NCBI GenBank assembly: GCA_963723235.1
Contig: CAVRPV010000019.1
Location: 84,064-148,063 of the forward strand
Direction of reading: 5' to 3'
Length of the DNA stretch: 64,000 nucleotides
From: an uncultured delta proteobacterium
Lineage (GTDB): Bacteria; Desulfobacterota; WTBG01; CAIYCZ01; CAIRTM01
Shown: positions 13,106 through 63,895 of the stretch, piece by piece
Layout: the number at the start of each line of letters is the position of its first letter
Position numbering within the stretch: position 1 is the first letter of the stretch
Made by a program: the position numbers and the translations under genes
Notes under the pieces: model-generated
Seen by the model: the letters and a program-made list of their open reading frames with translations, nothing else
The model's database searches: none
What the model was told of the DNA's origin: nothing

Positions 13106-13466
13106 TGTACTGACGGGCTGATTATTCCGATCGGTATCAGCACCGAAATAAACGCTGGTTTTCGCGGCACCGCTGGAACATGGCCGGAATATGGAACGCG
13201 CACCGTCCGCTGGCTAACGTCATGAAAGTGCTCAAAGGCCTGCAAATGCAGGAACAGGACACATTCGGCCTAAGCGCGGAGCGTGCAGGCAGAACTGACG
13301 AAGAGTTTATCTCAATCGTCAATACCCTCGGAAAAGATGTCGACATGCGCTTGACGTGAAATAATTTTTTTTGATGATGCCGTTGAAGACAAAAAGTCTG
13401 CTGAAAGAATATTCGAGCCTGCCGCCATTTTCAAAATAAAGGTTACCGCCTTATAGCCGTCATCGA

Positions 13467-13560
13467 CAACCGGATAGAGGCCGAACCCGCGCATATATTC
13501 TGTATTGATAGAGCCCTGGAGGTGATGCATCTGCAGGGGCGTGCGGTCAGGGAGATGACA
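13467..13560 (+). repeat. Copy A of an imperfect direct repeat of about 95 bp (core TTCTGTATTGATAGAGCC..GGAG.T.AT.CATCTGCAG)
   Basis: About 80% identical to 13988-14080. Both copies lie upstream of small ORFs or the PAP2 gene. Confidence 0.6.
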
Positions 13561-13987
13561 CGAATGGATATTGATCCCCGTATGCTTGCCAAACCCGATT
13601 TCATGCCCTGGGATCTGCTGAATACAAAAGCCCGCAATGAGATTGTACCCAGCTGCGCGTTTGCCAGGCATGACAATCTCAACGTTTTTCAGAATGCTTT
13701 AGCATGACGTGCTGCTCAACCAAACAAACCGGGTTACGCATGAACAGGTGCATAATTGCTACCAAACACCAAACCTGCAAGGAGAAACAATGCTATGAAC
13801 ACACACATTCGAAACACTTTCCTGTTCGTTCTGACTATAGCAGTTGCGTTTCAATTTGTTGTGGCTGCGTGTGCTTTCCGCAGCGCAATTCTGTTGTCGA
13901 CTACACTGCCCAGCGATTTCCAGTATTTGGCGATGCTTATTTTTTAACGGGTATGCTTTCGGGCTCCTGCCGGCCTGACTCGGCATT

Positions 13988-14080
13988 CGACAACCGGACA
14001 GAGCCTGAAACCGCACATATCTTCTGTATTGATAGAGCCATGGAGATAATTCATCTGCAGTCACGCGCGGTTCAGTGATT
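13988..14080 (+). repeat. Copy B of the 95-bp direct repeat, ending in TGATTTTTTT immediately upstream of the PAP2 gene
   Basis: See copy A. Confidence 0.6.
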
Positions 14081-22900: not shown

Positions 22901-23502
22901 CCGCACCAGATATTCCCGATTTTGATTACGAGATCCTGCATCCACTGCATGCCGCAGGGGCTGGCCGTTATGCAGGCAGCTCAGGCTGTCTAAAACATTG
23001 TAATGCTGAGATCGCTGTTATGCACTTAAAGTTGCACAATGCTCCAGTGGCCGTATTGCTTCTAATTTTGATGACACCGTAAAAAATCGTCGGCTGTCAC
23101 TTCGAACCCTTGTAACTGCGGCACGTCATCACTTCAGGATATGCACACGACTATCGCCTCCTGATTGCATGGACATAACCGTCCCAACCCTTGATTACAA
23201 AAACCAAGAATGTACTTTCAGCTTGTTCGGCAACGCTGAGGGAAACGGAGTTCCTCACCTTGCACTATTTCGTCTTTCTGCGTTGCGGACACATGCATCC
23301 TTTCCGGCAAATCCTGAATGCGCCGCTGCGAAGCAAGGGCACCTGTAAATTAATAAAATGTTTAAAATGCATTAACAATTAAGGCCTATAGTCTAAGCCG
23401 ATACACCTTAGACATAATCGCATTAACCGGCAGGTGTCTGGACAATGCCATGGAAGATAATAACTTTACCGAACATTAACCAGCAGGGCGGAAAGGGGGT
23501 AT

Positions 23503-23552
23503 TGTTAGCGAAAATTAACCGTAAATTAACACAAGTATCAGACTGAATTAAC
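23503..23552 (+). promoter_or_regulatory. Candidate Pho box array upstream of pstS: AAATTAAC-CGT-AAATTAAC ... GAATTAACAATTAAG
   Basis: TTAAC occurs at 23506, 23517 and 23539 (11-bp multiples). The 13-mer ATTAACAATTAAG occurs at 23540-23552 and again at 23362-23374. Confidence 0.5.
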
Positions 23553-23679
23553 AATTAAGCACTACATTTAAGCAAAGACGATAGTTTGATATGCGCACAT
23601 GACGGCTTGTATGCGCGGCTGATCACAACAATTTCACCACACCCTGACAAAACCAGACAGAAGAGAAAGGAAGGGAACC

Positions 23680-29178: not shown

Positions 29179-29295
29179 GATGCAGCGCCATGACGGAGCC
29201 AGGGTTAAAAAGGTTGAAAAAAAAGGCGAAAGGTGGTTTTACATGACAGATCCCTTTGCAGGAGCGAACATCAATACTACGCGGTACGCACTATG

Positions 29296-29973
29296 AAAAA
29301 AACCATCGCCCTGGTTGAAGACGAGCCCGATATTGTCGAACTGCTTGAAATTCATTTGCAAAAAGGCGGGTTTCAGGTCAGAAGCTTCAATAACGGCAAA
29401 AAATTTCTGGAATACCTTTCAAAAAACACGCCGGATGTCGTGATCCTCGACCTGATGCTGCCCGATATCGACGGTCTGGAAATCTGCAAACAGGTGCGCA
29501 CATCCAACTCCAGCGCTGATATCGCCATTATCATGCTGACGGCCAAAAGCGAGGAAATTGATAAAATCCTGGGCCTTGAACTGGGCGCCGATGATTATGT
29601 CACCAAGCCGTTTTCCCCCAAGGAACTGGTAGCCAGGGTCAAAGCGGTACTGCGCCGGCATGCACCGCGGCAGCAGACCCGCACTATCGAAATCGCCGGA
29701 GGCCTGCTGATTGACCTTGAAAAATACACGGTTACACTTAGGGGCGAAAAGATTCAACTGACGTCGACTGAATTTCGCATCCTGCAGCTGCTGGCATCGA
29801 AAAAGGGCTGGGTCTTCAGCCGGGAGAAAATACTTGATCATCTCTGGGGTGATGAAAAAGCGGTGATTGACCGCACAATTGACGTGCATATCAGGCATCT
29901 GCGCGAAAAACTGGGCACGGCGGCCGGCTGCGTTAAAAACCTGCGCGGAGTGGGGTACAAGCTCGAAGAATGA
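29296..29973 (+). CDS. phoB: OmpR-family response regulator PhoB
   Basis: REC domain (MKKTIALVEDEPDIV..DLMLPDIDG) plus a winged-helix output domain, located directly after pstSCAB-phoU. Confidence 0.85.
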   Translation, partial: KKTIALVEDEPDIVELLEIHLQKGGFQVRSFNNGKKFLEYLSKNTPDVVILDLMLPDIDGLEICKQVRTSNSSADIAIIMLTAKSEEIDKILGLELGADDYVTKPFSPKELVARVKAVLRRHAPRQQTRTIEIAGGLLIDLEKYTVTLRGEKIQLTSTEFRILQLLASKKGWVFSREKILDHLWGDEKAVIDRTIDVHIRHLREKLGTAAGCVKNLRGVGYKLEE

Positions 29974-31706
29974 GAAAAACAATTTTTATAAAAATTTTTA
30001 CGGGTTACGTGCTGATCATCGCCCTGATGACCGGCGGTGTTTCGTTTCTGTGCTACCGTATCGTAAAACATCACCACATCGAAACCCTCACGAGTCACCT
30101 TGAAAAGCTGGCCATCGTTACCGGCCTCAGCATACAGGAGCTCTACGCCCGGCGAGAACAAGCCAACCTGGACCGCATGATTAAGAAGCTCGGCCCGGAA
30201 ATCGGCACGAGAATAACGATTATCGACCAGAACGGCACTGTGCTGGCCGATTCTGAAGGCGATCCACTCAGCATGGAAAACCATAGTTCGCGCCAGGAGA
30301 TCACACAGGCCCTGGGCGGACAGATCGGCGTTTCACAGCGCTACAGCACGACACTGAAAAATGCCATGCTCTATGTTGCCGTGCCGCTCACGCAGGCTGG
30401 TTCGATTGATGGCGTCGTGCGCGTGAGTTGTCCTGCGAGCGATATACAGCACTGGCTGAGCCAGCTGAAGGTTCAGATCGTCCAGATAGCCCTGCTGGTT
30501 ATACTGCTGGCGGTTATATGCGCGCTTTTGGTTGCTCGAAAATTATCCGCGCCCATCGCGCAGCTTAGCCGGGCATCGCGCCAAATTGCAGCGGGCGATT
30601 TTAACGTACGCGTGTTTGTCGACAGCCGCGATGAAGTACAGGACTTCGCGGTGAGCTTTAACAACATGACCGAAAAAATCCGCAAACTCTTTGATGAAGT
30701 GTCTCTGCAGCAGGAGCAGTTGAAAAGCATCATACGCTCCCTGCATGAGGGACTTCTGGTGATTGACCATGCCGGCCGTGTGATGATGTGCAATGAAAGC
30801 CTGGCCCGGATGGCGGGCTTTGAGCCGGGCGAAGCCCCGGGAAAGTTTTACTGGGAGCTGCTGCGCGTGGTGCGGCTTGAGGATATTGTTGAAACGTCCC
30901 GGGCATCAGGGGGCAGCAGCCTGCATGAGGTCCGGCTTGAGGGCAAAACGTGTTTGGTAAACGTCTCGCTGATCACGGAACTGAACGCGCTCGTCATGAC
31001 CTTCCTTGACATTTCAGAAACAAAAAATGTTGAACGCATGAAGCGCGACTTCGTCGTCAACGTCTCTCACGAATTGCGCACTCCCCTTACGGCGATCAAG
31101 GGCTTTGTGGAAACCCTGCAGGAGGAATCCGCAAGCGCCGATCATCAGCACTACCTGGGAATAATCCGGCGCCATACCGACCGTTTGATCAACATCGTCA
31201 AAGACCTTATGGTGCTTTCAAGCCTGGAACACGAGCAGGAACTTGAACTGGAAGAGGTCAATATAAAGGGTATTGCCGAACAGGTAAAAAAAATATATGT
31301 CGACCGTTTGAAAGAGAAAAACCTCTACCTGAATATTGAAGCCGAAAACGGCAAGCTGAACGCACGGGTCGATCCGTTCAAGCTGGAGCAGGTTCTCATA
31401 AACCTGATCGACAATGCCATTAAATATACCGAAACCGGCGGCATTACCATGCGGATGGAGCGCTCGCAGTCCGGTCTGGTTATAAGCGTTGCCGATACCG
31501 GCATCGGCATTGCCGCAGCTCATCTGCCCAAGCTGTTTGAACGTTTTTACGTGGTTGACAAATCACGCTCGCGCAAGGTCGGCGGCACCGGCCTGGGACT
31601 CTCCATTGTCAAGCACATTGTCCTGCTGCACAACGGCACCATCACTGTCGCGAGCACGCCCGGCACCGGCACAACCTTCACCATCACACTTCCCCAAAAC
31701 AGCTGA
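29970..31706 (+). CDS. phoR: Sensor histidine kinase PhoR (TM-HAMP-PAS-HisKA-HATPase)
   Basis: HELRTPLTAIKGF H-box and GGTGLGLSIV G-box. Its start overlaps the phoB stop by 4 bp. Confidence 0.85.
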   Translation: MRKTIFIKIFTGYVLIIALMTGGVSFLCYRIVKHHHIETLTSHLEKLAIVTGLSIQELYARREQANLDRMIKKLGPEIGTRITIIDQNGTVLADSEGDPLSMENHSSRQEITQALGGQIGVSQRYSTTLKNAMLYVAVPLTQAGSIDGVVRVSCPASDIQHWLSQLKVQIVQIALLVILLAVICALLVARKLSAPIAQLSRASRQIAAGDFNVRVFVDSRDEVQDFAVSFNNMTEKIRKLFDEVSLQQEQLKSIIRSLHEGLLVIDHAGRVMMCNESLARMAGFEPGEAPGKFYWELLRVVRLEDIVETSRASGGSSLHEVRLEGKTCLVNVSLITELNALVMTFLDISETKNVERMKRDFVVNVSHELRTPLTAIKGFVETLQEESASADHQHYLGIIRRHTDRLINIVKDLMVLSSLEHEQELELEEVNIKGIAEQVKKIYVDRLKEKNLYLNIEAENGKLNARVDPFKLEQVLINLIDNAIKYTETGGITMRMERSQSGLVISVADTGIGIAAAHLPKLFERFYVVDKSRSRKVGGTGLGLSIVKHIVLLHNGTITVASTPGTGTTFTITLPQNS

Positions 31707-38269: not shown

Positions 38270-38960
38270 AACCTTAAAATAGTATATCCGGTGAGTACGT
38301 CCGCTGACCGGCGCAATCGGTTACAGCAAACCGGAAGTCATACGTCACGCCGTTCTGCAGGCTCTCTACCGGCAGATGTGCCCGGGCACTTCCCTTGGCC
38401 TCATTGACCGTAACGGCGAAGCGCTGTCCAGTTGCTCCCGCCAGCCACTTGGTACTCGGCACCGTGCGTACACAGCACCAGAACAGGATACATAATCATC
38501 GCTGAATGTCCACAGCACATCATAATTTACATCCAGTCAACGGCGCTTTCAGCCGATGGTCGGCAGCAGCGGCCAGACCCTGCTGCCAGAAACGGACCGG
38601 CGGTGATTACCGGCGGGGCATCAAGGCGCACACCTTGAAATAGTATGATGCCGGTGAGTTGTCCGCTGACCAGCGCAATCGGTTACTGCAAACCGGAAGG
38701 CATATGTGCCGTTCTGCAGGCTCCCTACCGGCAGCGTAACCCGGGCAGTGCCCTTGGCAACATTGACTGTAACACCAAGCGCTGTCCAGCTGCTGCCGCC
38801 GACTACCTGGTACTCGGCAACGTGCGTGCATGCTCCCGAACATGATGCAAAATCATCGCTGAAGGTCCACAGCACGTCATAATTTGCATCAAGATACAAG
38901 GGCGCTCTCAGGCGATGTCGGCAGCAGCGGCCACGCGCCTGCCGCCAGAAACGGACCGGC
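38270..38960 (+). repeat. Diverged tandem duplication of about 340 bp (2 copies) encoding the repeated C-terminal domain of the giant protein
   Basis: 38270-38600 and 38630-38960 align at about 75-80% identity. On the minus strand both encode ..YDVLWTFSDDF.SCSGAC..L(P)V.SLQNG.(T)Y.FRFAVTDCAGQRT. Confidence 0.75.
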
Positions 38961-49608: not shown

Positions 49609-49668
49609 GGGCACAACACCGTGCGTGTATTTTGTTGCACGGGCAGTCCTTGTTGGGATTGCGTTTTC

Positions 49669-49707
49669 CCAAAAAGAAAGAGACCCTGCAGGGTCTCTTT
49701 CTTTTTC
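49669..49707. terminator. Bidirectional rho-independent terminator between convergent genes
   Basis: AAAGAGACCCTGCAGGGTCTCTTT flanked by A- and T-runs. Confidence 0.8.
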
Positions 49708-49726: not shown

Positions 49727-51086
49727 TTAAAACTTGAAGAGCAGATCGGCTTGCAGGACATGTTCATCATCGCTGCGGCCCACATCCTGCTTACACATAT
49801 AATAGGCGCCTCCAAGCTCAACATTCTTCATCAATCCGTAGGCAGCTTTTACTACATACCCGTTCATATTGGTCTTGCCGCCATAGGCATCAGAATCCGG
49901 GAATATGTCAAGCCATGCATCTTTTTCCAGTTTCTCATAGTACGCTTGGACCTGCCATTGACGCGGCTCTTTAATCTTCTCGTGACCGAACTTGATCCCG
50001 GCGGTATACCCGGTATCTTCTTTAACGCTGCTTGCGGTATTCTTAACATATTCACCATACAGCGCGGCAAACGGCATCAGCGCAAGACCGGTATTTTTGG
50101 TGCCCAGCTCGCCTGATACTACGACCGGCTCGTAGTCATATGCCAGGGTTTTTCCATCCAGCGTGTTTGATTTGCTTGAATAGTCAAGCGTAGAACCCTT
50201 GACATTGCTGGCGTTGTAGTAGGCAAACGCGTTCTTGAAATACGCATTTTGTCCAAGTTTAATGTTGTACCCGGGCTGCAGAAAAAAGAAGCCCGGGTCG
50301 TTTGAACTCTCTTTGATCTCGTCGATAACCCAGTACCCGTTGGTCATGAACAGGTCAACGCTGCCCACTGTGCGATTCATAGACGCTGAAACACCTTGCG
50401 GCCTGATATCACTGTCCCAAATCCAGCCACTGGGCATCCAGAGCGGATTTTCAAACTGACCGCCGACAAGCCGCAGCCACTCAAAGGGCTTGTAGGATGC
50501 ATAGGCATAATCAAGCCGGATGTCAGGTGTTTCAAACGAATTACCAAAAGTCTGGTTGGTGCTGCGCGGATCAGCGTGCCGCTGGCCAGCCCGAAGCCTA
50601 CGTTGAATTTCTCGTTGACCTTCGTGACCATGCCAAGACGAAAACGGTAGCGGCCGCGGTTGCGTTCATCTTCACCGTCGTTGTCTTTGTTGCTATTCTC
50701 GTAGCGCAGCCGAAATCGCCCTTAAACTGGGTGTTTTTGATAAACTCCGGCATCGCCAATGACGAGATGATTTCCTTGTTCGTTTTGTCTTTTTCAGACT
50801 TTTGAACACTCAAAATGAGGTCGCCGTCCTTCTTGGTCAATACACCTTTGTCAACCAGCTTATCCACCAGCATGTCCATCTCGCCCGCCATGACAGGGGC
50901 CTGGCACAAAAGCAGGGCTATCATAACCATGATGCTGATAATTGTCCGTTTCTGCATGCTTTCCTCCTTTATGTTTGCATCAATATACCGGTTTACACAC
51001 CATTCATTTATTGCCTGCCAGCAAGGGCTGCAGAGCACATGTACGCTTTCGTTGTTACTGCCGTTGCCGCACATTCTTGCATGCAT
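49727..51086 (-). CDS. Putative outer-membrane porin, paralogue 1; frameshifted
   Basis: Signal peptide MQKRTIISIMVMIALLLCQAPVMA and N-terminal helical segment (LVDKLVDKGVLTKKDGDLIL). Beta-barrel-like alternating pattern, and a C-terminus ..LQADLLFKF ending in Phe. Confidence 0.55.
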
Positions 51087-51279
51087 TCCTCCTTTCTGTT
51101 TTCTGCGCTGCCGGTTAAGAAGACACTCCGATTACATTAATTTCTTGTAAGATCATACGGGCGCTCTTTTAATATTGAGATAGGCAAGCGGTTATTTTTC
51201 AGTTAAAACATCTCCGGCTTTCTCGCCGCAGATTGTTGAGCAAATCATTTCGGGCGGGGTGTTGTGCGGGCGTTTGCGC

Positions 51280-51314
51280 AAAAAAAAAGAGACCCTGAAG
51301 GGTCTCTTTTTTTC
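51280..51314. terminator. Rho-independent terminator, near-identical to the one at 49669-49707
   Basis: AAGAGACCCTGAAGGGTCTCTT flanked by A9 and T7. Confidence 0.8.
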
Positions 51315-51332
51315 AAAGGCTATGAAGATTTT

Positions 51333-52616
51333 CTAAAAGTTTACATTCAACTCGACCATCACGTTGTCCTCATTGTTATCTGAACCGGTTAGCGGCTTGC
51401 TGTGATAATAATTGGTTCCTATATTAATATTATCCATGAGCCCGTAGGCAACCTTCAGGATATAGGCCTCAACGTTGGTCTGCCCGCCGTACGTATCGGC
51501 ATCCGGGAAGATGTCAAGCCATGCATTGCGCTCCAGCCGGGTGAACTGCAACGCTCCCTGCCACTGGTGTTTCTTTGCAACCTTCTCGTGACCGAACTTG
51601 AAACCGACTGTTTGTCCGCTGTCACCCCTGCTGACGTCCCGGTTGTTGATGTATTCGCCGTACACCGCGGCAAACGGTATCAGCATAAGCCCGGTTTTGT
51701 ATCCGAGCTCGCCAGAGACCACGTACGAGTTGTAGTCATACTTCAGAGTATTGTCCTGATTCCGCGTGTTTGAATCGCTTGAATAGTCAAGCGAAGCGCC
51801 CTTGACATTCGAGAACTGATACACGGTCAGAGCGTTTTTGAAATAAGCTTGCTTGCCAAGGTTGACCTTGTAGCCGGGCTGAATGACCCACATGAGCGGA
51901 TCGTCCGAGATCATTGCGTATTCATCCAGGATCCAGAAGCCGCTGTTCATGAACAGTTCAACGCCGCCCACCGTGCGCTGCATAACCGCAGTAACACCCT
52001 CAGGCCTGATGTCGCTGTCCCACAGCCAGGAATCCCCGGGAAGCCAGAGCGGATTTTGAAACTTGCCGCCTATAAGCTTCAGCCAGTCAAATGGCTTGTA
52101 GGTGGCATAGGCCAGGTCAAGCCGGATTTCGGCCTTGTCGAATGAATTGTTCATGTCCTGCATGCCGCTGCGCGGATTAGCGCCGCCGGTTGCAATGCCG
52201 TAGCCCACATCGACTTTGTCGTTGATTTTCGTGACAGCGTTAAGGCGCAGCCGGTAACGGCCCCGGTTCCGGTCTTGTTCTGAATCGCCCCTGCGGTCGG
52301 TATACTGATAGCGCAGGCGAAAATCGCCTTTAATGGTGGTATTTCTGAACCACGCGGGAATTGCCTCGGCCAGCATAAACGGGGCATCCTTGCCGGTCAT
52401 AAGCGCTTCTTTTGTAGCCGCGATGGTTTCCGTGCGCTCTTTTGCGGCTTCAGCCTTGGTTTCCTTCAAAATGGCGTCGGCATCCTGCTGGTTCAATAGG
52501 CCCTTTTCAACCATCTTTCTTACCAGGATGTCAACTTCACCTGCCGTGGCAGGAGACTGCCACATGAGCAACAGCATCATAATTATTGTCAGTAGTGTTC
52601 CCTTTTTCATCTGCAT
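51333..52616 (-). CDS. Putative outer-membrane porin, paralogue 2 (intact, 427 aa)
   Basis: Signal peptide; LVRKMVEKGLLNQQDADAIL helical N-terminus; C-terminal ..VELNVNF. Confidence 0.55.
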   Translation of the reverse strand: MQMKKGTLLTIIMMLLLMWQSPATAGEVDILVRKMVEKGLLNQQDADAILKETKAEAAKERTETIAATKEALMTGKDAPFMLAEAIPAWFRNTTIKGDFRLRYQYTDRRGDSEQDRNRGRYRLRLNAVTKINDKVDVGYGIATGGANPRSGMQDMNNSFDKAEIRLDLAYATYKPFDWLKLIGGKFQNPLWLPGDSWLWDSDIRPEGVTAVMQRTVGGVELFMNSGFWILDEYAMISDDPLMWVIQPGYKVNLGKQAYFKNALTVYQFSNVKGASLDYSSDSNTRNQDNTLKYDYNSYVVSGELGYKTGLMLIPFAAVYGEYINNRDVSRGDSGQTVGFKFGHEKVAKKHQWQGALQFTRLERNAWLDIFPDADTYGGQTNVEAYILKVAYGLMDNINIGTNYYHSKPLTGSDNNEDNVMVELNVNF

Positions 52617-52997
52617 TCCTCCTGTGTGTTTGAATAGTGCCGGTTAATCAAATAGCTGAACGTTTTTAGTACCTGCTGTGGTTGTTCGTCACATGACACC
52701 GAACAACCCGACCCTGCAACTCAATCAGCAAACATTTTGCACAAAGAGTGCCACTCTTTGTTACGGTGCTTCAGAGATGCCGTTCTCCTGCAAAACTCCT
52801 TGTTTTCAGACTGTTTTTCTTTTGGCGATCAAGTCAAGCACTTAGGCACTGACTAAAAACAACAAATTTCAGCCATATGCGGCTCATTTTTTCAATCATA
52901 TTTGACTGAAAAAATGCATTTTAATGTTATGCGCCCATAGAAGTACATGAACCAATCACATGTTGTGCCAGCAAAAATATGTTAAAAAAAAATAACA

Positions 52998-53050
52998 GTC
53001 AAGTTAATTTTGTTACTTAAGTTATTTAAGGTAATTATTGGTTTTATTTG
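52998..53050 (+). promoter_or_regulatory. Conserved AT-rich element E3 (GTCAAG..TTATTGGT..TTTATTT), upstream of the tandem porin genes
   Basis: Related 55-60-bp elements occur at 57235-57295 and 62951-63010. Confidence 0.5.
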
Positions 53051-53177
53051 CAGCATTAGAAGAAATTGGGGTAGTGCATGCGCCTGTCCTGCAAGCCATG
53101 ACGCATGCTATACGATGAAAATGAAGGCTGCCAATCCGGCGTAGATATACTTTATAAAAATGAAGGTGGCTAAACAA

Positions 53178-53440
53178 TCAGGTTGCAGACAAAAGCTGTC
53201 CAGTGGCTGATGTGTCATAGCCGCCCATGGCATTGACCTTCTGCCTGAAGGACTCTGAACGCACCACCTGCAGCAGGGCATCAATCGGCCCTGCTGAGGT
53301 GCTCTGTTTGGAAATGATCAGGTCGAAGCGTTCTTTGGCAAGATGCACAAAATCAAGGCCCGGCATTTTTGCCGCGCTCAGAATGCCCATGGCCACATCC
53401 GCTGATCCCCCGAATACGGCAAGACATAGGTGGTCTGCAA
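53178..53440 (-). pseudogene. Orphan fragment: a duplicated 3' end (last ~85 codons) of the TunR-family regulator gene
   Basis: About 250 bp, roughly 85% identical to 57424-57670. Encodes ..MGILSAAKMPGLDFVHLAKERFDLIISKQSTSAGPIDALLQVVRSESF.. with no N-terminal HTH. Confidence 0.6.
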
Positions 53441-53515
53441 AAAAGGCAGGGTCATGTGCTGACCCTGCCTGTGTGGTTATTCAAATTTGCTTCCAGTGTT
53501 CTCGGCACTATAGTG

Positions 53516-55463
53516 TCAGAGAATAGATGCAGCCTTCATTGCAGCCTTTTCAGCTTTATGCCGATTCGAGAGATCGGTTTTTTCTGCTTTTTGCTCATCT
53601 GAAAGAGTATTTTTTTCAGATTTTTGCCGAACACTAAGAAGCTTGGCATCATCTTTATCAACGTCACAGTCACCGTCCAGGTCCCATTCCAGGCCGCATC
53701 CGGAAAAACCCATAGCAGCCTTCATTGCAGCCTTTTCGGCTTTATGCCGATTCGAGAGAGCGGTTTTTTCTACTTTTTGCTGAGTTGAGAGAGCAGTCTT
53801 TTCGTTCTTTTGCCGGAGCTTAAGAATACTGGAATCGTATTTATCAACGTCACAGTCACCGTCCAAGTCCCATTCTACATCGCAGATGCACTTGTCAATA
53901 CCCTCGTCGCAGGTTTCACCCGCTGAGCAGGGACCGGCTGCAAACCCGCACACCTCAGCCGTACAGACCGGCGCACCGGTGCAATACAGGCCGTCATCCG
54001 GGCAGTCACTGTCCTTCAGGCACTCTACATACTCCAGGCTGAACTCAACCGTCTGGTTATCGCCGTGGATCACGGTCACATCCTCGGTCTGGCTGCGGTA
54101 GTTTTCGGCAGATACCGTAAGGGTATAGCTTTTTTCATCATTTTCAGGGCCGGAAACCACGCCCCGCTAACATGAATTGGCCTTTGGTGTCGGTACGCGT
54201 TTCATAGCCGCCCATGCCGGTTTTCACCAGCGCATTTGCAATAGGCTTTTGCAGCACCCGCGAGACCACCGTACCCTTGATATTGCCATTGCGCAGATTG
54301 CCGTAAATAACTATCTTCTCGTCATTGAGCAGGCCCCAGCCCGCGTCGGTCTGGCTGTTTCTCCAGTCATATTCTGTTGTGCCTTCAGGCAGCGGATCGA
54401 CCCGGATGGCGGCGACACCGCGGGCTGAAAAGCCGGCATTATGGTCGGTATTGACCTCATTTTTATCATAGGGCCAGGGCTCAGCAGCAGGTGTTGCCGA
54501 GGTTGCCTGACGGTCGGGATAGCCGGGTCTCCACTGCGGGGGCACAGCCCGGAACGGGCCTTCGCCCACGAGCTTGTTCTGGGCGTCCTGGTAGGCAATG
54601 TCGAGATAGGCGCCGTTGGCCTTGTAGGCAAGCAGCAGCTTCAAACCACCAGCAACCGTTATGGTCTGGCCATGAGTCCTGCCGGTGCAGCCCGGCGCGC
54701 TGTAGTCGACCCAGCCGCCATTGGCTGAATCTGCTGTCGCATCATAAAAATATTGCGCCTGCGGATAGGTTCCCTCAATGGGGTAATTAGTGCCGGTGCT
54801 CGTGCGCGCATAGGTATAGCTGTAGCCGTCGGGTGCGGTAACGGTTATGCCGGAGCTGGCAGCGGTCCAGCCGGTTGCCTCAAGCAGCTCCTGCATAATG
54901 AAGCCGGTATACGTGGCATAATAGTCGAAGCCGCTTTCTCCGCCCCGGCTGGTGTTCATGAGCATAAACTGCGCATGGGGCGTCAACATGGATTCAAGCT
55001 CATCAAGGCTCAAAATAATATGCGGCGCCGGCACTTTTGCCGGCGTGTCGAGCGCGTCACCGGGATAGCGAATGGCATTGATTTCCGTTATATTGCTGTA
55101 GGTGTCATTGTCCGAATCAAGGCCCTCAATTGCTTCAAGGGCCGCCAGGCTTCTGCCCGCCGCATTATAATCTGTGCCGAAGGGGTTGAGTGTTTTGGCA
55201 ATATCGCCCGATCCATCATAACCATATACTGTGTGGCAATACTGGCACGCGCTCTCGGTGACCACGGCCCCCGATTTTGTCTTGTACGTATTGCCCTTGT
55301 GGCACGTGGCGCAATCGTCAAGCTTGGTGCCCGCCTTGTCGGGGTAGACCTTCAGAAATTTCGGGGCGTCTTGCTCATCCAGATGATGGTAGGCGCCAAA
55401 GGCCGTGCCTGAGAAAAGCGCAAGCACGGCAATCCCTAAACACAGTGTTCTCAGTCGTCTCAT
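53516..55463 (-). CDS. Secreted multidomain protein: diheme c-type cytochrome, unknown central domain, CarboxypepD_reg-like domain, EGF-like Cys-rich module, and Asp-rich tandem repeats; frameshift near 54150
   Basis: Signal peptide. Two CxxCH motifs (DCATCHK, CQYCH). ..NGNIKGTVVS..TDTKGQFML / SGPENDEKSYTLTVSAENY.. across the shift. CPDDGLYCTGAPVCTAEVCGFAAGPCSAG..; repeats CDVEWDLDGDCDVDK..KAEKAAMKAA x2. Confidence 0.55.
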
Positions 55464-55487
55464 ACAATTCCTCCTGTCCTGTTAAGA

Positions 55488-56997
55488 TTAAAATTCAAGC
55501 TGCAGGCGCGCCATCCACGCCTGCTCAATGTCCTCGTAATAGGCTGCGCCAGAGTCACTATAGCCTAGAAACAGCGGGTCTCCAAAGCGGGTGTAGCTGT
55601 AGTCAAGGGAAAACCTGACCATGGCATTGAGGTACCAGTTGATGGCTGCTGTCAGCGAATTGGCCTCGCGCACGCTCAACCCCTCATTGACAAGAGATTC
55701 ATAGGTGATTTTGTCCGCCTCGAACTGCTGATACATAAATCCAAGGCCCCAGGCACCCCAGGACCCGGTGCGGATATTAAAATCCTTGAGAGGCCGAATT
55801 TTTCCCAGGACACCCCCTTTCAGTTCAGGCCGCTCGCCGGTCAGCATAACCAACAGCCCCGCGTACCACGAGCGCAGGGAAAAATCGAAAAGCTCAGTGT
55901 CGGAGATTTTTACGCCGCCGTAGTCATTCTTGATATACTCAGCCATCAGCGCCACAGGCCCGAGCGTGTAGGCCAGTTCAAGGCCGTAGCGGTTCAGATC
56001 ATCGATTTCTTCGGTCATGTGGAATTTTGCATTTGGCTGGATAGTGTAAAACGTCGTGCGGGCCGGAGTTTTAACCTTTACATTGAAGTCCGATGTGTCG
56101 AGGCGGGCATAGGAGTAGGAGCCGCCAATCTGGAGCGATTTCAGAAAATCAGGGCCCCAGGTGCTGCAGCGGCTTAAACACCAGCCGGCCGGTCACCTGC
56201 TTATCGTCCTTCTGGCTGCGGCGGTTGGCATCGGTGCCGTCACCGTTGAAAACGCCAACGCCATACATGATCGCTTCATCATACAAACTGCCGTGCAGCA
56301 TGAGACCCACATCGCGACCGGGTGTGAGGTAAAAGCCAAAGGAGCGCTCGGTGAAAGCAAGATTTTTATCAGCCGTAAGCTGCTCGAAGCTGAAAGGCTC
56401 CTTGAACTGCCCCATGCGCACCTGCAGCCACGGCACGGCATCATAATTTATATAGGCATCGATCAGGTCGTCGCTGCTTGAGCCCTCCAGCTCGTACTCA
56501 AGGCGGTAGGAAAAATCGCGGTACAGGCGGCCTTCGACAAACAGGCGCGCCCGGCGTATATCAAAGTCATTGCTGATAGGATAGTTGGGCTGAAACATCA
56601 GGTAATCTGTCTGGATGAGCCCGCCGATGCGCATTTCAAAACTTTTGTCCTGCAGGCCGATCTTTAAGCCCTCGTCATAGCTGACCTTGACCTCCCTGGC
56701 CTCTTTTTCAGCCTTCAGCTGCAGGGCCTGTTTGTCTTCTTGATCAAGTGTTGCTTTTATTTCACGGGCCTGCGGCTCAGTAAGCGCGCCATTTGCTTTT
56801 AAGAAATCAAGCAGCTTCTGATCGGCAAGGGGGCCGGCAGAAGCTGCTGCGGGCAGCAGCAGGCACAGGCAGAAAAGAATAGTGCCGTATGTTTTGCTCA
56901 TTTTTCTTTTTCCTACGACGAAAAAAAGCCGGTTCCGTGCCAAAGCAGGGAACCGGCTTGCGCGCAGGCAACCGTATTCTCTCTCCTTCCCCAGCAC
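55488..56997 (-). CDS. Phosphate/anion-selective porin of the OprO/OprP (Porin_O_P) family; frameshift near 56020-56150
   Basis: Signal peptide MSKTYGTILFCLCLLLPAAASA. ..RIGGLIQTDYLMF.., ..DIRRARLFVEGRLYRDFSYRLEYELEG.., and ..LQVRMGQFKEPFSFEQLT... C-terminal ..ARLQLEF. Confidence 0.7.
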
Positions 56998-57234
56998 GGG
57001 AGGCATGGCCTTTTCAGACCATACCCTGTCGGCCGCGCTTCATAGGCTTTAAGCCCGTAGAGCTTCGCGGCTCGGAGATAAAATATCTTTCAGCAGAGCC
57101 CGTTTAGCTCTGCACTATCATTTTATTTAGAATACAGCCCCTTCCTGTGTGCCGCACCGTTCGCGGAATGCCGCATTTTTCTCAGGGGGCCATGTCGATG
57201 ATGCAATTACAGGATATAGAAAACAAAAGACTAT

Positions 57235-57295
57235 GTCAAGCCAAATTAGTCATTATTGGTAATATTAAGTTATTATAGGTTAGTTTAAATTCACA
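57235..57295 (+). promoter_or_regulatory. Conserved AT-rich element E2, in the promoter region of the porin-cytochrome operon
   Basis: GTCAAGCCAAATTAGTCATTATTGGTAATATTAAGTTATTATAGGTTAGTTTAAATTCAC; compare with E1. Confidence 0.5.
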
Positions 57296-57423
57296 AAATA
57301 GTTTTGCAGCCCAGGCGCAAAGATGCCGATACAGGGCCGTCTGCATGGTGGTTAGCACAGAAACTGATTGTGCAGTGGATCTCAGCTGCGGCGGAATTTG
57401 TTTGATGGAGAAATGACGCAGTA

Positions 57424-58342
57424 TTACGTTGCGGCTATGAGCTGACCAGTGGCCGATGTGTCATATCCGCCCATTTTATCGACCTTCATTTTGAAGACTT
57501 CAGACCGGACAACCTGAAGCAGGGCATCAATCGGCCCTGCTGAGATGCTCTGTTTGGGAATGATCAGGTCGAAGCGCTCTTTGGCAAGATACACAAAATC
57601 AAGGCCCAGCATTTTTGCCGCGGTCAGAATGCCCATGGCCGCGTCCGCTGATCCGCCGAAAACAGCAAGGGCCGCCTCATTATGAGTGGAAACCTCGTTC
57701 TCATAGCCGGTTATCTGCCCGGCATCAATGCCCAGCCGCTGCAGCTCGGCATCAAAAAACAGGCGCGTTCCCGAACCGCTCTGGCGGTTGATAATGCGCG
57801 CGCCGGAACCGGGCAATGTCGGCGACGTGTTGCTATGTTCAGAGGATTGCCGCGCTGCACAATCAAGCCCAGGTCGCGATACACAAGATTAATCACCACC
57901 ACTGCCGTGTCCGGCAGATACTTTGCCAGATACGGCACATTGTAGCTGCGGGTTGCCGGGTCGAACAGATGTGCGCAGGCCACATGGCAGATGCCGCTTT
58001 GCCAGGGCAATAAGCCCGCCGGCGCTGCCCACATTGTGAAACCGAAAGACTCAAGTCCGGGAATGCCTGTGGTCAGCTCATGGGACAGCAGCTCCATGCA
58101 GAAATCATGGCTGCCCATGGCCACGATATGGCGTGCCCGGCTGCGCCGCTTTACCCTTTCATCGACACATTTTCTTCAGCGTTTTTTATTATCCAGGCAT
58201 CGATCAGCTGTTTTGGAAATGTCCATTTGCCGGTAATGCGGGTTGCGGGTATTTTTTTATCCTGAATGAGCTTGTACACCTGCTTTTCATTGATATTGAG
58301 ATACTCAGCAAGCTCTTTGGTGTTCAGCATTTCTTTATTCAT
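57424..58342 (-). CDS. TunR-family (COG1910) transcriptional regulator: excisionase-type HTH plus a periplasmic-binding-protein-like oxyanion-binding domain; frameshifted
   Basis: N-terminus MNKEMLNTKELAEYLNINEKQVYKLIQDKKIPATRITGKWTFPKQLIDAWI. The C-terminal PBP-like domain lies in ORFs 57711-58124 and 57424-57816. Confidence 0.65.
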
Positions 58343-58507
58343 TGATGCGTTCCCCCGATGATGGAAAGCGTTGTTTGATCTCCTGCGAAAGCATACCCCA
58401 CATTGCAAAAAAAATAAAGGCTTCTGCAACCTCACGCAGCGCCGCCGCTTCCCGGAACGCAAGCTGTTTTTCTTACAAGAAATTCCAAGTTCCCCGCCCG
58501 AATGTGC

Positions 58508-58558
58508 TATAATGTTTATCGAAGAATGGATTCGGCCACGCCTGTTTGCAAAACAGGC
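58508..58558 (+). promoter_or_regulatory. Sigma-70-like -10 box (TATAAT, 58508-58513) followed by a perfect 19-bp palindrome GCCTGTTTGCAAAACAGGC (58540-58558)
   Basis: Located in the divergent region between the regulator gene and the small ORF / MoSto-like gene. Confidence 0.4.
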
Positions 58559-58647
58559 AGAGATGCCGCTTATTTTAAACGCAATAGTTTCCGGAAGACA
58601 GTGGAAGGAAAAAGAGGCCACCAACCTACTCAAGAAAGGAAAATACC

Positions 58648-58863
58648 ATGGCAGGAATAATGTTTTATCGTGAGCGCACCAAAATCGGCGAAGGCAAAAA
58701 GGCCCCTCGCTATGTAATGGTTGCGGTGAGCGGTGTAGATTTAAAGTTTTACGCCAAGCATGTGCGCAAGCAGGAGCTTGACCAGATCGCGACAGCGGTC
58801 AAGGCCAAACTGGTTGAGCTGAAGGTCGACAAACGAAAAAAGCAGGACAACGTCGAATGCTGA
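58648..58863 (+). CDS. Small basic hypothetical protein (71 aa)
   Basis: Good RBS (AAGGAAAATACCATGG). Sits immediately upstream of the MoSto-like gene. Confidence 0.4.
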   Translation: MAGIMFYRERTKIGEGKKAPRYVMVAVSGVDLKFYAKHVRKQELDQIATAVKAKLVELKVDKRKKQDNVEC

Positions 58864-58873
58864 AGCTGCAATG

Positions 58874-58907
58874 AGGCCCTCGCGCTCAGGCGGAGGGCCT
58901 TTTTTTC
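58874..58907 (+). terminator. Rho-independent terminator or attenuator
   Basis: AGGCCCTC-GCGCTCAGGCG-GAGGGCCT followed by T7. Confidence 0.7.
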
Positions 58908-58919
58908 CAGGGAGAGGTC

Positions 58920-59750
58920 ATGGCACTGGTGCGAGACAAAGACGGCAAGCGGCTGCACGTAAAAAGCAAGCTCATGGGTGAAAGCCTGGTGAGCAAAAAA
59001 TTTATCGACGGGCTGGACACGGCTCCGCAGCGCCGGCTGTTCCCTGACATTAATATCCTGAAGATCGGCGGTCAGTCAATTTGCGACCGGGGCGCCCATG
59101 TGCTGCCCGGCATCATAAAAGAAATTGCGGCCAATAAGAAGAAGCACAAGCTGCTCATCACCACCGGCGGCGGCACACGCAGCCGCCACATCTACGCCAT
59201 CGGCCTTGAGATGGGGATGCCTGTGGGCGTCATCGCCCGGTTCGGCAGCACCATTTCCGAACAAAACGCCCTGCTGGTCTCCATGCTGCTCGGCCCCTGG
59301 GGCGGCATCAAAATCACCCATGCCGATCTTGCTGAAGCTGCCCAACTATTACGTGCAGGGCTGCATCCCGGTCACGGCGGGCATGCCGCCCTATGACCTG
59401 TTTGCCCTGCCGCACGGCAAGAACCGCATCCCCCTGCACCGAACCGACGTGGGCACGCTGCTGCTTGCCGACCTCACCGGCGCCCGCAGCTGCATTTTCA
59501 TAAAAGATGAAGAGGGTCTCTACACCGAGGACCCAAAAAAAAACCGCCGCGCAAAACTTATCCCCGCATAAGCATCTCGGAACTTATAAAAAGGGATCAG
59601 GATGATCTCATTATCGAGCGGCCATGCCTTGAAATCATGCGCAACAGCGAAGTGATCCAGAAAATCCAGATCATTAACGGCATGAAAAAGGGCAATATAA
59701 CCGCAGCACTGAACGGCAAACATGTGGGAACGATTATTTTTAAGGATTGA
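58920..59750 (+). CDS. Molybdenum/tungsten storage protein (MoSto, MosA/MosB-like) homologue of the amino-acid-kinase family; two frameshifts (frame 0, then +1, then 0)
   Basis: KIGGQSICDRG; HKLLITTGGGTRSRHIYAIG; GMPVGVIARFGSTISEQNA; then GMPPYDLFALP..IPLHRTDVGTLLLADL..IFIKDEEGLYTEDPKKN; then ..VIQKIQIINGMKKGNITAALNGKHVGTIIFKD. This matches recalled Azotobacter MosB blocks; the match is from memory, not from a database search. Confidence 0.6.
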
Positions 59751-59825
59751 GCATAAACAAGTTATACAGAAACCCGCGCTGCCAAGAGCATCATGCGGCT
59801 CATAGGGTGAGGAAGCAGAAAACCC

Positions 59826-60912
59826 TTATGCATGCGCTATCATGTGCACGGCCGTTGCCTTGAAATGAAGCAACAACCGAACCGCCCTCTGCAAGGCCCA
59901 TTTCCTCCCGCGAGCGATGGGTAATATGCGTGGAAAGAAAAAATCCGCAGTCGAGCTGCACCTTGAAAAAATGGCCCATGGGAATAAGCCGGGTGATGGT
60001 GCCGGTGAAGCAGTTGCGGGCGCTGGTGCGTCATGGCGGCCGGGCAGGGCAAGGGTCACATTTTCCGGCCGTATGCACAGGATGACCGTCTGCCCGGCAG
60101 CTGCAGTCGCCCACGCATTCAATAAGCTGTATCTGCAACAGCGACGCTCACCGTGCCCTGACCGGCCTGCACAACACGGCCCTTCAGCACGGTGCCCATG
60201 CCGACAAAGGAGGCCACGAATTCATCAGCCGGAAAATTCATAACATCTGCCGGGGGCCCCATCTGCACCAGTCGGCCCTGCTGCATCACGGCCATGGTAT
60301 CGGCAAGCCTGAGCGCCTCTGCCTGATCATGCGATGACATGACCACAGCAATGCCGGTTTCCCGGAATATATGTGTCAAGATCATCGATAAGTGCTTCGC
60401 GCGTGGGCGGGTCAAGGGCTGAAAAAGGCTCATCGAGAAACAGGATTTCAGGCCGGGTGGCAAAGGCCCGGGCAAGGCTTGTGCGCTGGGCCTCGCCGCC
60501 CGAGAGCTTGCGCGCCGCGCGCCGGGCCAGATGGCCGATGCGGAAGCGCTCGAGGTTCTGCTCCACCCGCTGCCGGATCTCCTGCCGGGGCAGGCCCCTG
60601 ATTTTAAGCCCCGAGGCCACATTGTCATACACGGTCGTGTCAAACAGCAGGGGCTCCTGAAACACGGTTGCCGTGCTTCTGCGAAAGTCAAGTATTGAGC
60701 GCCCGGTCGGCTACCGGCTGGGATTTAAACAGAAGCTCGCCTGCCTGCCGCTCAAGCAGGCAGCACAGCGTCAGCAGCAGCGTTGATTTGCCCGAGCCAT
60801 TGGGCCCCACAAGGCACACAATTTCGCCCTGCCGCAGGCAAAACCCCGGCACATCAAGCACCCGGACCCCGCCGCGCCGGACATCGATATTTTTAATTTC
60901 AAGAATGTGGCT
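59826..60912 (-). CDS. tupC: Tungstate/molybdate ABC transporter ATP-binding protein with a C-terminal TOBE-like domain; frameshifted
   Basis: VGPNGSGKSTLL, LSGGEAQR and ILFLDEPFSALD. The post-ATPase ..FVGMGTVLKGRVVQAGQGTVSVAVAD.. / ..VILCIRPENVTLA is a TOBE-like fold. Confidence 0.7.
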
Positions 60913-60921
60913 GCTCGCTGT

Positions 60922-61621
60922 TCATCGGGGCCTGTCATGCTGCTGGATATGGGTAAGGATATAATTGACGGCAAAGGTCAGGACGAGCAGAATGATGCCA
61001 AGGGCAATGGCGATATCGAAATTGCCCTTGCTGGTTTCCATGACCGTGGCCGTGGTGAGCACGCGGGTATAGCCCTTGATATTGCCGCCCACCATGATCG
61101 ATGCGCCCACTTCGGAAATGACGCCGCCAAAGCCGGCCATAACAGCCGCAAGCAGGGGCAGGCGCGCTTCGCGCATAAGCAGCCAGATCATCTGCAGCCG
61201 CGTGGCCCCCAGCGCCAGTATCTGCAGCCGCAGGTTGCGGGGCAGATTCTGAATGGCCGCAACCGTAATGCCCGCCACAATGGGCGTTGCGATAACAGCC
61301 TGCGCCAGGATGATGGCCCCGGGCGTGTAGAGCATTTCAAGAAAACCCAGGGGCCCGTTGCGCCACAGGAAAATCGTCACAAACAGGCCCACCACAACGG
61401 GCGGCAGGCCCATGCCCGTGTTGATAAGGCTCACCACCAGATTCTTGCCCCGGAAGTCCGCCAGGGCAAGACAGATGCCGGCGCTCATGCCGATAAACAG
61501 GCTTACAAGCGTTGCCGCACCCGACACCTGCAGCGACAGAAGCGTTATGCTCCACGTCTCCGGGTCAAGCGTGACACAGCAGCACAACAGCCTGCCAGAT
61601 GCCTTCAAAAATCAGATCCAT
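60922..61621 (-). CDS. tupB: Tungstate/molybdate ABC transporter permease
   Basis: CysT/ModB-type permease with ..IMVGGNIKGYTRVLTTA.. Confidence 0.7.
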
Positions 61622-61814
61622 AGCTATAACAATGCCTTGCCGCATATTTCTCACGTATTGATCTGCGAGCTCGCATCATGCGGATTGACATCTGCCATGC
61701 TCAAGCACGAAGCCCCCGCTGTTCGGGCGGGGCTTTAGTGTTGAAATATTTTAAAAAAGATTGCAACTCATTGTGCCAGATACTAAGCACACCCGTCGAT
61801 ACGCCTGCCTCTTG

Positions 61815-62655
61815 TTACTTCCCGAGGCTTTCAACCGTTTTGCCCGCATCGGGGGTGAACAGGGCTGCGCCGAACTTTTCAACGCCGAAGGTGCCGATCA
61901 GCTTCTGCGTGGCCGGGGCGACCATAAAATCGGCAAATGCCTTTGCGCCCGCCGCGTTCACTTTGGGCCATTTCTGAGGGCTGACTTCAATAACATGGTA
62001 CATGTTCAGAAGGCTCTTATCGCCCTGGCACAGAACGGCAGGCCCAGATTTTTCTGCAGGGAAAGATAGGTTCCCCGGTCGGCAAGGGTATAGCCCTTTT
62101 TTCTCCGCGGCTACTGCCAGGGTCTGGCCCATGCCGAGGCCCGTCTGCTGATACCAGCTCTGGCCGTCCGGCTTTACCCCTGCGGCCTCCCAGATCTTCT
62201 TTTCTTTTGAATGCGTGCCTGAATTATCCCCCCTGGATATAAACAGGGCACTTTTTTCAGCAATCAGTTTAAAAGCCTCGGATGCGGTTTTTGCAGCCTT
62301 TACGCCCGCAGGGTCATCGGCCGGGCCGATGATGATGAAATCATTGTGCATCACAAGCTGGCGCCGCGATCCGTTGCCCTCGTCCATGAATTTCTTCTCA
62401 TCAGCAGGCGAGTGCACCAGCAGCACATCCGCCTCGCCCTTGGCGCCCATGGCAATGGCCTGGCCGGAGCCGACCGCTATGGTCTTCACAAAATAGCCGC
62501 GTCTGTTTTTCAAACACCGGCAGCAGCGCATCCAGAAGCCCCGAGTCCTGCGTGCTCGTCGTGGTGGCAAGAATGATATTTTTCGTTTCAGCAGCCGGGC
62601 TGTAGGCAGGCGCTGCCAGCAGAAAACCTATGCCCAGAAGCAGGGCGGCAGTCAT
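61815..62655 (-). CDS. tupA: Tungstate ABC transporter substrate-binding protein (TupA/WtpA-type); frameshift near 62490
   Basis: Signal peptide MTAALLLGIGFLLAAPAYS and the ILATTTSTQDSGLLD signature. Confidence 0.7.
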
Positions 62656-62950
62656 GGTGTACGCGTGCTTCTTCTCATGGTCATCTCCTTCTGTTCGGTT
62701 TGTCTGCACATGTTTCTTTACTGCCTCACGCGTAAAAACTCTTTTTTGATACGGAGCATATCATCTGACGGGGCGGCGGTCTGCCGCCGGCCTGCAATAG
62801 CCCCGTTTGCAATACAGCCATTGTATTACCCCTATCGGTTTGCGGCACTAAGGTCACCGTGTCAATAACAAGTTGTCCTGAAGTGAAAAACCCGCCATGA
62901 GCAACACCCGCTTCTCAGCGTGGAGCAACGATACATAAAAAAATATACGC

Positions 62951-63010
62951 GGTCAAGCCAATTGGTTACTATTGGTCATTTAAAGTAATTTTTGGTTCTA
63001 TTTATTCTAC
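62951..63010 (+). promoter_or_regulatory. Conserved AT-rich element E1, in the divergent tupA / phoU-like promoter region
   Basis: GTCAAGCCAATTGGTTACTATTGGTCATTTAAAGTAATTTTTGGTTCTATTTATTCTAC; compare with E2. Confidence 0.5.
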
Positions 63011-63208: not shown

Positions 63209-63895
63209 ATGGATGGTCATATTTACAAGTCATTCGACAAAGAGCTTCATGATTTAAAAGAACGGCTTCTTGTGGTGGGCGGCTGCGTGGAACGCTCAAT
63301 CCGGGACGCAGTCCGGGCGCTTGAGGAGCGCAATTCCGAAGTCGCCCAGCGCATCATTGACGACGATGATACGGTTGACACCCAGGAGCTTGAAATCGAC
63401 GAGTTCTGCCTGCGCCTGCTTGCCCTGCGGCAGCCTGCGGCCCGCGACCTGCGCATCATCACGACAGCGATGAAGGTCAACTATGACCTTGAGCGCATCG
63501 GCGACATGGCCGTGAACATCGCCGAGCGGGTGCTGGAGCTCAACAAGGAACCCCAGCTCAAGCCCTACATAACCCTGCCGCAGATGGCCCTGTCCGTTCA
63601 GCAGATGCTGCGGGACAGCCTCAATGCCTTCATAAACGAAGACCCTGTCGCTGCCCGTGCCGTGATAAACGAAGACGAAAAGGTCGACCACGCCCTGAAA
63701 CAGATTTACCATGAGCTGGTAAACTACATGGCAAGTGACTACGGTTACGTGCCGCGGGCCACGCGGCTTCTGTTCATTTCCAAATACCTTGAGCGCATCG
63801 CCGACCATGCCGTCAACGTCGCCGAACTGGTGGTGTTCATGGTTGAGGGAAAAATCCTGCGGCACCACAAGCACCATGAGGCAGAAAAAGAATGA
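63209..63895 (+). CDS. PhoU-family protein (second paralogue)
   Basis: Two PhoU repeats with ..DLERIGDMAVNIAERV.. and ..YLERIADHAVNVAE.. Confidence 0.8.
   Translation: MDGHIYKSFDKELHDLKERLLVVGGCVERSIRDAVRALEERNSEVAQRIIDDDDTVDTQELEIDEFCLRLLALRQPAARDLRIITTAMKVNYDLERIGDMAVNIAERVLELNKEPQLKPYITLPQMALSVQQMLRDSLNAFINEDPVAARAVINEDEKVDHALKQIYHELVNYMASDYGYVPRATRLLFISKYLERIADHAVNVAELVVFMVEGKILRHHKHHEAEKE

Follow-up and report, generated by a model that had tools for sequence, protein, structure and literature searches.

The window analysed here is a 64-kb stretch (64,000 nucleotides) of contig CAVRPV010000019.1 from an uncultured delta-proteobacterium, and this study concerns three AT-rich elements within it, named E1, E2 and E3. 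E1 lies upstream of tupABC, which encode a tungstate transporter, E2 upstream of an operon encoding a Porin_O_P protein and a GEGP-motif diheme protein, and E3 upstream of two tandem Porin_5 genes. The same locus encodes a regulator of the COG1910 type, which an earlier note on this DNA had proposed to bind all three elements. The elements lie where that note had placed them, all in the same (+) orientation, and domain and open reading frame (ORF) annotation agreed with its description of the surrounding genes. The best NCBIfam matches of the tupABC products are TupA, TupB and WtpC, all under the equivalog cut-offs, and the diheme protein matches NF041762 with 440 bits against a cut-off of 300. 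The coordinates of all features are collected in Table 1.

Table 1. Features of the tup/porin locus, given as positions in the window
Feature	Position	Strand	Details
E1, four-unit array of 10-bp GTNA units	62951..63010	-	about -44 to -85; abuts the tupA promoter
E1 promoter	62928..62956	-	-35 TTGACC (62956-62951), 17-nt spacer, -10 TATCGT (62933-62928); promoter scan
tupABC, downstream of E1 (predicted target)	59826..62673	-	tupA 62673-61815, tupB 61620-60922, tupC 60924-59826
E2, four-unit array, upstream of the Porin_O_P/GEGP operon	57235..57295	-	about -42 to -85
E2 promoter	57211..57239	-	-35 TTGACA, 17-nt spacer, -10 TATCCT; promoter scan
Moco/Tuco riboswitch aptamer RF01055, P3-less, in the E2 leader	56967..57089	-	covariance model
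Strong intrinsic terminator (expression platform)	56921..56959	-	separates the aptamer from the Porin_O_P start codon at 56901
Porin_O_P and GEGP-motif diheme protein genes, downstream of E2 (predicted target)	53516..56901	-	Porin_O_P 56901-55488, GEGP 55463-53516
E3, four-unit array, upstream of the tandem Porin_5 genes	52998..53050	-	one 9-bp spacing
E3 promoter	52974..53002	-	-35 TTGACT, 17-nt spacer, -10 TATTTT; promoter scan
Two tandem Porin_5 genes, downstream of E3 (predicted target)	49727..52616	-	52616-51333 intact; 50957-49727 split
TaoR-family regulator gene (HTH_17 + PBP_like)	57424..58342	-	broken by 5-6 single-base insertions
Duplicated 3' fragment of the regulator gene	53178..53423	-	copied with an E2-type promoter
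71-aa ORF and AA_kinase-family (UMP-kinase-like) gene	58648..59750	+
phoU paralogue	63209..63895	+	divergent from tupA

Repeat units, promoters and leaders at E1, E2 and E3

Each element is about 55 nt long, with an A+T content of 75-83%. Read on the plus strand, it starts with GTCAAG, followed after 7-8 nt by four head-to-tail units that repeat GT-N-A at 10-bp steps. The unit has the 10-bp consensus TWRGTNAYTW, with G and T invariant at fixed 10-bp intervals across the units and a single 9-bp step in E3. The 10-bp periodicity rests on the recurrence of GTNA; the degenerate units were not reported by a repeat finder. On the minus strand, GTCAAG reads CTTGAC, which is a -35 box and is followed after a 17-nt spacer by a -10 box, and a consensus promoter scan independently listed minus-strand promoters at all three elements. 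Since the conserved GTCAAG is a minus-strand -35 box, transcription from E1-E3 runs leftward, and the arrays occupy about -42 to -85 of these promoters. Immediately upstream of the intact -35 box, A/T runs follow one another in 10-bp phase. The earlier note had described the elements as lying between genes. Their intergenic positions hold, but the description needs correcting in that the elements are the promoters of the minus-strand genes and GTCAAG is their -35 box. Transcription from E1 is predicted to start near 62921, giving a leader of ~248 nt to tupA, and the predicted leader of E3 is ~350 nt long. For E2 and E3, the start is predicted near 57204 and 52967, respectively.

The likeness of the three elements is well beyond chance. 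In pairwise local alignments, a shuffle test that is non-circular because it involves no training on the sites, E1 and E3 scored 29 and E1 and E2 scored 26, and none of 5000 shuffles reached either value (mean ~10 in both cases, maximum 24 and 20, respectively). The E2-E3 score of 17 was reached by 41 of 5000 shuffles. E1 is the copy nearest to both others. A profile built from E1-E3 matched E1-E3 only in the 64 kb (a result that is circular for these three sites themselves), with the next best match at E>10. Likewise, the degenerate pattern GTCAAGN{7,8}GTNAN{5,6}GTNANHWWWDGTNANHWWWDGT matched exactly E1-E3 in the window and nothing in 100 dinucleotide shuffles, and a relaxed three-unit expression, scanned on both strands of the window, found AT-rich arrays at E1-E3 only.

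Part of the likeness between E2 and E3 is accounted for by an old segmental duplication. Both lie inside it, in register with a copied 3' end of the regulator gene (53177-53423 and 57423-57669, 85% identity). The ~120 nt separating the regulator fragment from the element cannot be aligned between the two copies, which makes the element an island of conservation, and E1 lies outside the duplication altogether. The regulator fragment is also present in a syntenic contig (L001), and the duplication is therefore older than the split of the two lineages. E3 probably originated when the E2 promoter was copied together with the regulator 3' end to a position before the Porin_5 genes.

The leader of the E2 operon carries a further regulatory feature. 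A covariance model placed in it an aptamer of the molybdenum or tungsten cofactor (Moco/Tuco) riboswitch family RF01055, with 67.4 bits where the gathering score is 36, in which model positions 62-76, corresponding to the P3 stem, are deleted. According to the published description, P3-less members of the Moco RNA constitute the tungsten-cofactor class. The aptamer is followed by a terminator, a ribosome-binding site and the porin start codon. Both aptamer and terminator are conserved before the orthologous porin gene in three other loci (L001, L002, and L007), where P3 is likewise absent. The Tuco-type riboswitch thus provides an independent tie of the porin operon to tungsten. The E1 and E3 leaders matched neither a riboswitch nor any other Rfam family at a threshold as loose as E<=10. 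The first ~75 nt of the E2 leader (57130-57204, minus strand; …CATGGCCCCCTGAGAAAAATGCG…CCGCGAACGGTGCGGCACACAGG…), upstream of the aptamer, are also conserved across six orthologous loci.

The regulator and the recurrence of the element

The only domains found in the regulator are Pfam PF12728 and PF12727, i.e., an excisionase-like HTH_17 helix-turn-helix (HTH) domain and a periplasmic-binding-protein domain, PBP_like (COG1910). TaoR, which has been characterised as regulating the tungsten aldehyde oxidoreductase (AOR), has this same architecture, and the regulator type is hence already known. The "TunR-like" label given in the earlier note was not borne out. TunR reportedly combines a XerC/XerD-like DNA-binding domain with ModE-like TOBE/Mop sensor domains, as described by Kazakov and colleagues in 2013, and we rejected this identity because the regulator has only HTH_17 and PBP_like and neither a XerC/D-like nor a TOBE domain. 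TaoR of D. vulgaris is DVU3193, also named tupR, and its mutants are chlorate-resistant like aor and tupABC mutants. It is tungstate-dependent in vivo, whereas its DNA binding in vitro was unaffected by tungstate.

The reconstructed regulator protein has 725 homologues of ~303 amino acids, the best of them 89% identical. The HTH is nearly invariant across homologues that are 40% to 89% identical overall, which fits a shared DNA unit. NCBIfam models recognise an excisionase domain and, in the PBP part, a resemblance to the C-terminal domain of the MoeA-type molybdopterin biosynthesis protein PRK14498; the nearest solved relatives of the PBP domain are PstS-like phosphate binders, PEB3, AcfC, and sulfate-binding protein. 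The PDB contains no sequence relative of the HTH domain and no TaoR-family structure. The structural model of the HTH domain (predicted local distance difference test score, pLDDT, 86) best matched BldC in complex with a four-repeat DNA operator (6AMA, root-mean-square deviation 1.7 A), followed by the excisionases RdfS and Xis.

The element recurs at orthologous promoters. A syntenic contig whose regulator is 89% identical (L001) contains orthologues of E2 and of E3 (the latter at 9552-9617), and a second one with a 79% identical regulator (L002) contains E2 and a weaker E1. The E2 promoter is conserved in five loci (L001, L002, L007, L028, and L038). Using a strict pattern, we scanned 596 Gb of genomes plus metagenomes, collections that lie outside the source genome itself, and obtained 42 matches, eight in the genomes and 34 in the metagenomes. 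Some 23-24 of them were unrelated perfect short tandem repeats, often on low-GC contigs, and were set aside. Eighteen matches, including 14 of those from metagenomes, adjoin TaoR-like genes or genes of molybdenum or tungsten (Mo/W) metabolism. The non-trivial matches all lie beside Mo/W genes or regulator homologues.

Half of the eight genome matches fall in two related delta-proteobacterial metagenome-assembled genomes (MAGs), two in each and all in a TaoR or Mo/W context. Some lie before Porin_O_P-GEGP; the others precede a secreted-protein operon with a FecCD-type importer and diverge from a TaoR-like gene. In the metagenomes, the genes following the arrays are Porin_O_P-GEGP; yqeC with a molybdenum hydroxylase of the xanthine dehydrogenase type; yqeC...modABC...AA_kinase-taoR; tupABC; and an aldehyde:ferredoxin oxidoreductase gene (AFOR). 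In the last case (AFOR_N/AFOR_C, L043), the array stands directly upstream of the gene with the same geometry as at E1-E3.

More distant regulators, of 60-67% identity, adjoin tupBC, Mop/TOBE, modABC, AA_kinase, and aor genes and show the same units at or beside their own promoters. One such locus (L013) has the same combination of GTCAAG and array, and in two others (L014 and L015) four GTNA units abut the -35 box in the promoter of the regulator gene itself. An nhmmer profile of E1-E3 missed the arrays in these distant loci, which were found by reading the intergenic DNA.

Taken together, the orthologous promoters, the matches adjoining Mo/W or TaoR-like genes, and the units at the promoters of 60%-identical regulators support the proposal that the elements are operators of the COG1910-type regulator of the locus. 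The further claim, that the porin operons belong to a W/Mo-responsive regulon, is supported by the contexts in the collections and by the Tuco-type riboswitch. A motif scan had been suggested as a way to expose unrelated promoters carrying the element; each of the two related MAGs yielded only two matches, all of them in Mo/W or TaoR-like contexts.

Two observations from these scans concern other genes. In the two delta-proteobacterial MAGs (L006 1411-7232, L010 1-3403, and L008), an array with its promoter, divergent from a TaoR-like gene, precedes and appears to drive genes for secreted proteins with TSP_3 repeats or BNR-like domains and for a FecCD-type ATP-binding cassette (ABC) importer. 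This operon may represent an unrecognised W/Mo-linked uptake system. Furthermore, a Chloroflexia MAG (L009, 6579-6622) has three perfect GGTTACAAAA repeats beside CTTGAC, ~170 bp upstream of an AOR-family gene, with no TaoR-like gene within the 8 kb examined. These repeats are possibly a related operator in another phylum.

The predicted operator and its alternatives

We favour the reading that each element is both a sigma-70-type promoter and a compound operator, to which the TaoR-family tungstate/molybdate regulator of the locus would bind, and put the probability of this reading, which predicts binding sites from sequence, at roughly 0.78. By analogy to BldC, Xis, and RdfS, four regulator protomers would line up head-to-tail on one face of the DNA beside the -35 box. 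The PstS-like PBP domain would sense the oxyanion, and the bound filament would alter the recruitment of RNA polymerase at the adjoining -35 box. The E2 operon would be subject to a second control, in which the Tuco-type riboswitch and its terminator stop transcription when the cofactor is plentiful.

As to the sign of regulation, we lean slightly to activation over repression, because the arrays sit upstream of, and do not cover, the -35 box, because the aor promoter in L043 shares this geometry, and because D. vulgaris lacking TaoR shows the phenotype of an aor mutant, indicating a positive role for AOR.

Several points weigh against the operator reading or its activating form. The regulator gene in the window is interrupted by five or six frameshifting single-base insertions in comparison with intact orthologues. 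This may mean either that the gene is a pseudogene or that the assembly is error-prone; that all changes are insertions suggests assembly error rather than decay. At the regulator promoters of L014 and L015, the orientation of the array is reversed. The supporting loci, drawn from a small set of related clades, are not independent of one another, and in the source organism the scan covered the 64-kb window. The likeness to TaoR rests on domain architecture, gene association, and regulon content. The -35 boxes come close to the consensus, as is unusual where a promoter depends on an activator, and this favours repression. In addition, a 2019 abstract is said to report that TaoR represses tupABC in D. 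vulgaris, in conflict with activation at E1.

Four other explanations of the elements were considered. The first, which we regard as improbable, is that they are generic AT-rich upstream DNA, i.e., an UP element, curved DNA, or a site for IHF, Fis, or H-NS without a specific regulator. The high A+T content and the 10-bp-phased A/T runs directly upstream of the -35 boxes would suit such DNA, but the invariant G and T at fixed 10-bp intervals would not, and neither would the presence of three copies only in 64 kb despite many promoters or the confinement of the MAG matches to Mo/W contexts.

There is a similarly small chance that another Mo/W regulator, of the ModE or TunR type and encoded elsewhere in the genome, binds the elements. 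The Mo/W content of the regulon would fit this equally well, and the rest of the genome lies outside the window. However, the ModE-type palindrome TATATA-N6-TATATA has no match in the window with up to 3 mismatches, an inverted-repeat search found none common to E1-E3, and the element is found together with TaoR-like genes, also at the promoters of these genes themselves.

Slightly less probable again is that the response regulator PhoB binds the arrays as Pho boxes, an arrangement that would suit OprO/P-type porins and the adjacent phoU paralogue. Like OmpR/PhoB sites, the arrays consist of direct repeats spaced by roughly one helical turn, the porin family is named phosphate-selective, and phoB and phoR are encoded in the window (29233-31706). 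ATTAAC direct repeats with an 11-bp period lie upstream of pstS (23345-23388, 23505-23564, and 12728-12771); they are candidate Pho boxes and share a TAAC core with some of the units. As the mark of a Pho box we took at least two direct repeats of 7 bp, spaced at an 11-bp period, that stand in place of the -35 box and occur at pstS. Yet the canonical Pho promoter of pstS (23680) lacks the element and has this other repeat in its stead, while E1-E3 have a period of 10 bp and their arrays lie upstream of an intact -35 box, not in its place. Moreover, across the collections the element keeps company with Mo/W and TaoR-like genes, not with pst genes.

Least probable of all is that the likeness is a mere relic of segmental duplication without present function: the register of E2 and E3 with the duplicated regulator end and the many frameshifted genes of the locus would agree with it, but E1, the copy nearest to both others, lies outside the duplication, the flanks of E2 and E3 have diverged while the element has not, and distant loci show the same architecture before different target genes.

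Porins, neighbouring genes and related systems

If the predicted operators are real, anion-porin genes would be controlled by W/Mo through two independent cis-elements, the TaoR-type array and the Tuco-type riboswitch. This arrangement, which is conserved across several lineages of uncultured delta-proteobacteria, offers concrete candidates for an outer-membrane uptake step. To our knowledge, the passage of tungstate and molybdate across the outer membrane has been largely unaddressed, the known regulation being that of inner-membrane ABC systems. We tentatively suggest, while considering it doubtful, that tungstate (or thiotungstate/molybdate) crosses the outer membrane by a dedicated route made up of the OprO/P-like porin, the GEGP diheme protein encoded with it, and the Porin_5 paralogues, and that this route is jointly switched by the TaoR operator and the tungsten-cofactor riboswitch. 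If true, this would be the first regulated, oxyanion-specific outer-membrane step in W/Mo uptake, and processing of the metal's sulfidic forms might fall to the secreted diheme protein.

An AA_kinase-family gene, whose product resembles the molybdenum storage protein MoSto, also accompanies TaoR-like genes in other loci and may have a role in Mo/W storage. In the window it is preceded by a 71-aa ORF (58648-58863, plus strand), and ORFs of 71-72 amino acids occupy the same position in L001 (3786-4001) and L013 (3961-4179), a likeness of size and position only. Between E1 and the divergent phoU paralogue, the promoter scan recognised no promoter. Near-identical terminator-like hairpins follow each Porin_5 gene (49651-49704 and 51260-51313), consistent with tandem gene duplication. 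Tandem or near-tandem coding repeats occur in the C-terminus of the GEGP protein (186-bp unit, 53529-53884) and elsewhere in the window (~358-bp units at 38349-38893 and a repeat spaced 524 bp at 13463-14071). Single-base indels break many genes of the locus (49727-62673), namely those for the regulator, tupA, tupC, Porin_O_P, GEGP, AA_kinase, and one Porin_5, whereas phoU, the other Porin_5 gene, and the pst operon are intact.

The closest known system is TaoR (DVU3193/TupR), which shares with the regulator studied here the HTH_17 and PBP_like build, the gene neighbourhood (tupABC, modABC, and aor), and the Mo/W content of the regulon. The TaoR family is reportedly one of tungstate-responsive regulators, introduced by Rajeev and colleagues in 2019. 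In contrast to the described TaoR, the host here is an uncultured delta-proteobacterium, the predicted targets include OprO/P-type and Porin_5 porins and the GEGP diheme protein, and one target is under a Tuco riboswitch. What may be new is thus the content of the regulon, i.e., two outer-membrane porin classes and a GEGP diheme protein, with one operon under both operator and Tuco-type riboswitch, and possibly also the clear four-unit architecture of the operator.

The DNA-binding fold, as modelled for the HTH domain, is shared with BldC, Xis, and RdfS. BldC of Streptomyces lines up head-to-tail on two to four AT-rich direct repeats, each repeat taking one protomer, in 2:1 or 4:1 complexes, and its repeat number matches the four-unit arrays of E1-E3. 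The BldC repeat is AATTNNNN(C), of ~9 bp, compared to TWRGTNAYTW, of 10 bp, here, and BldC, Xis, and RdfS, unlike our regulator, are small proteins of a single domain and lack a ligand sensor. The loci described here suggest how a regulator with an excisionase fold may read DNA, namely by forming a head-to-tail filament along 10-bp repeats beside a -35 box. LysR-type regulators gave the top full-length fold matches and have the same general build, an N-terminal winged HTH followed by a type-II PBP-fold effector domain. They differ in their HTH family (HTH_17 here, with no LysR Pfam match) and in binding T-N11-A dyads instead of direct repeats.

ModE and TunR fulfil the same physiological role, the oxyanion-responsive control of mod/tup transport. 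The ModE box is the palindrome ATCGCTATATA-N6-TATATAACGAT, which is absent from the window. With respect to RF01055, the E2 leader scores well over the gathering threshold and lacks P3 like the tungsten-associated variants. It differs in that it controls an operon for an outer-membrane porin and a diheme protein, not a transporter or cofactor gene, and in that the riboswitch is combined with a predicted protein operator.

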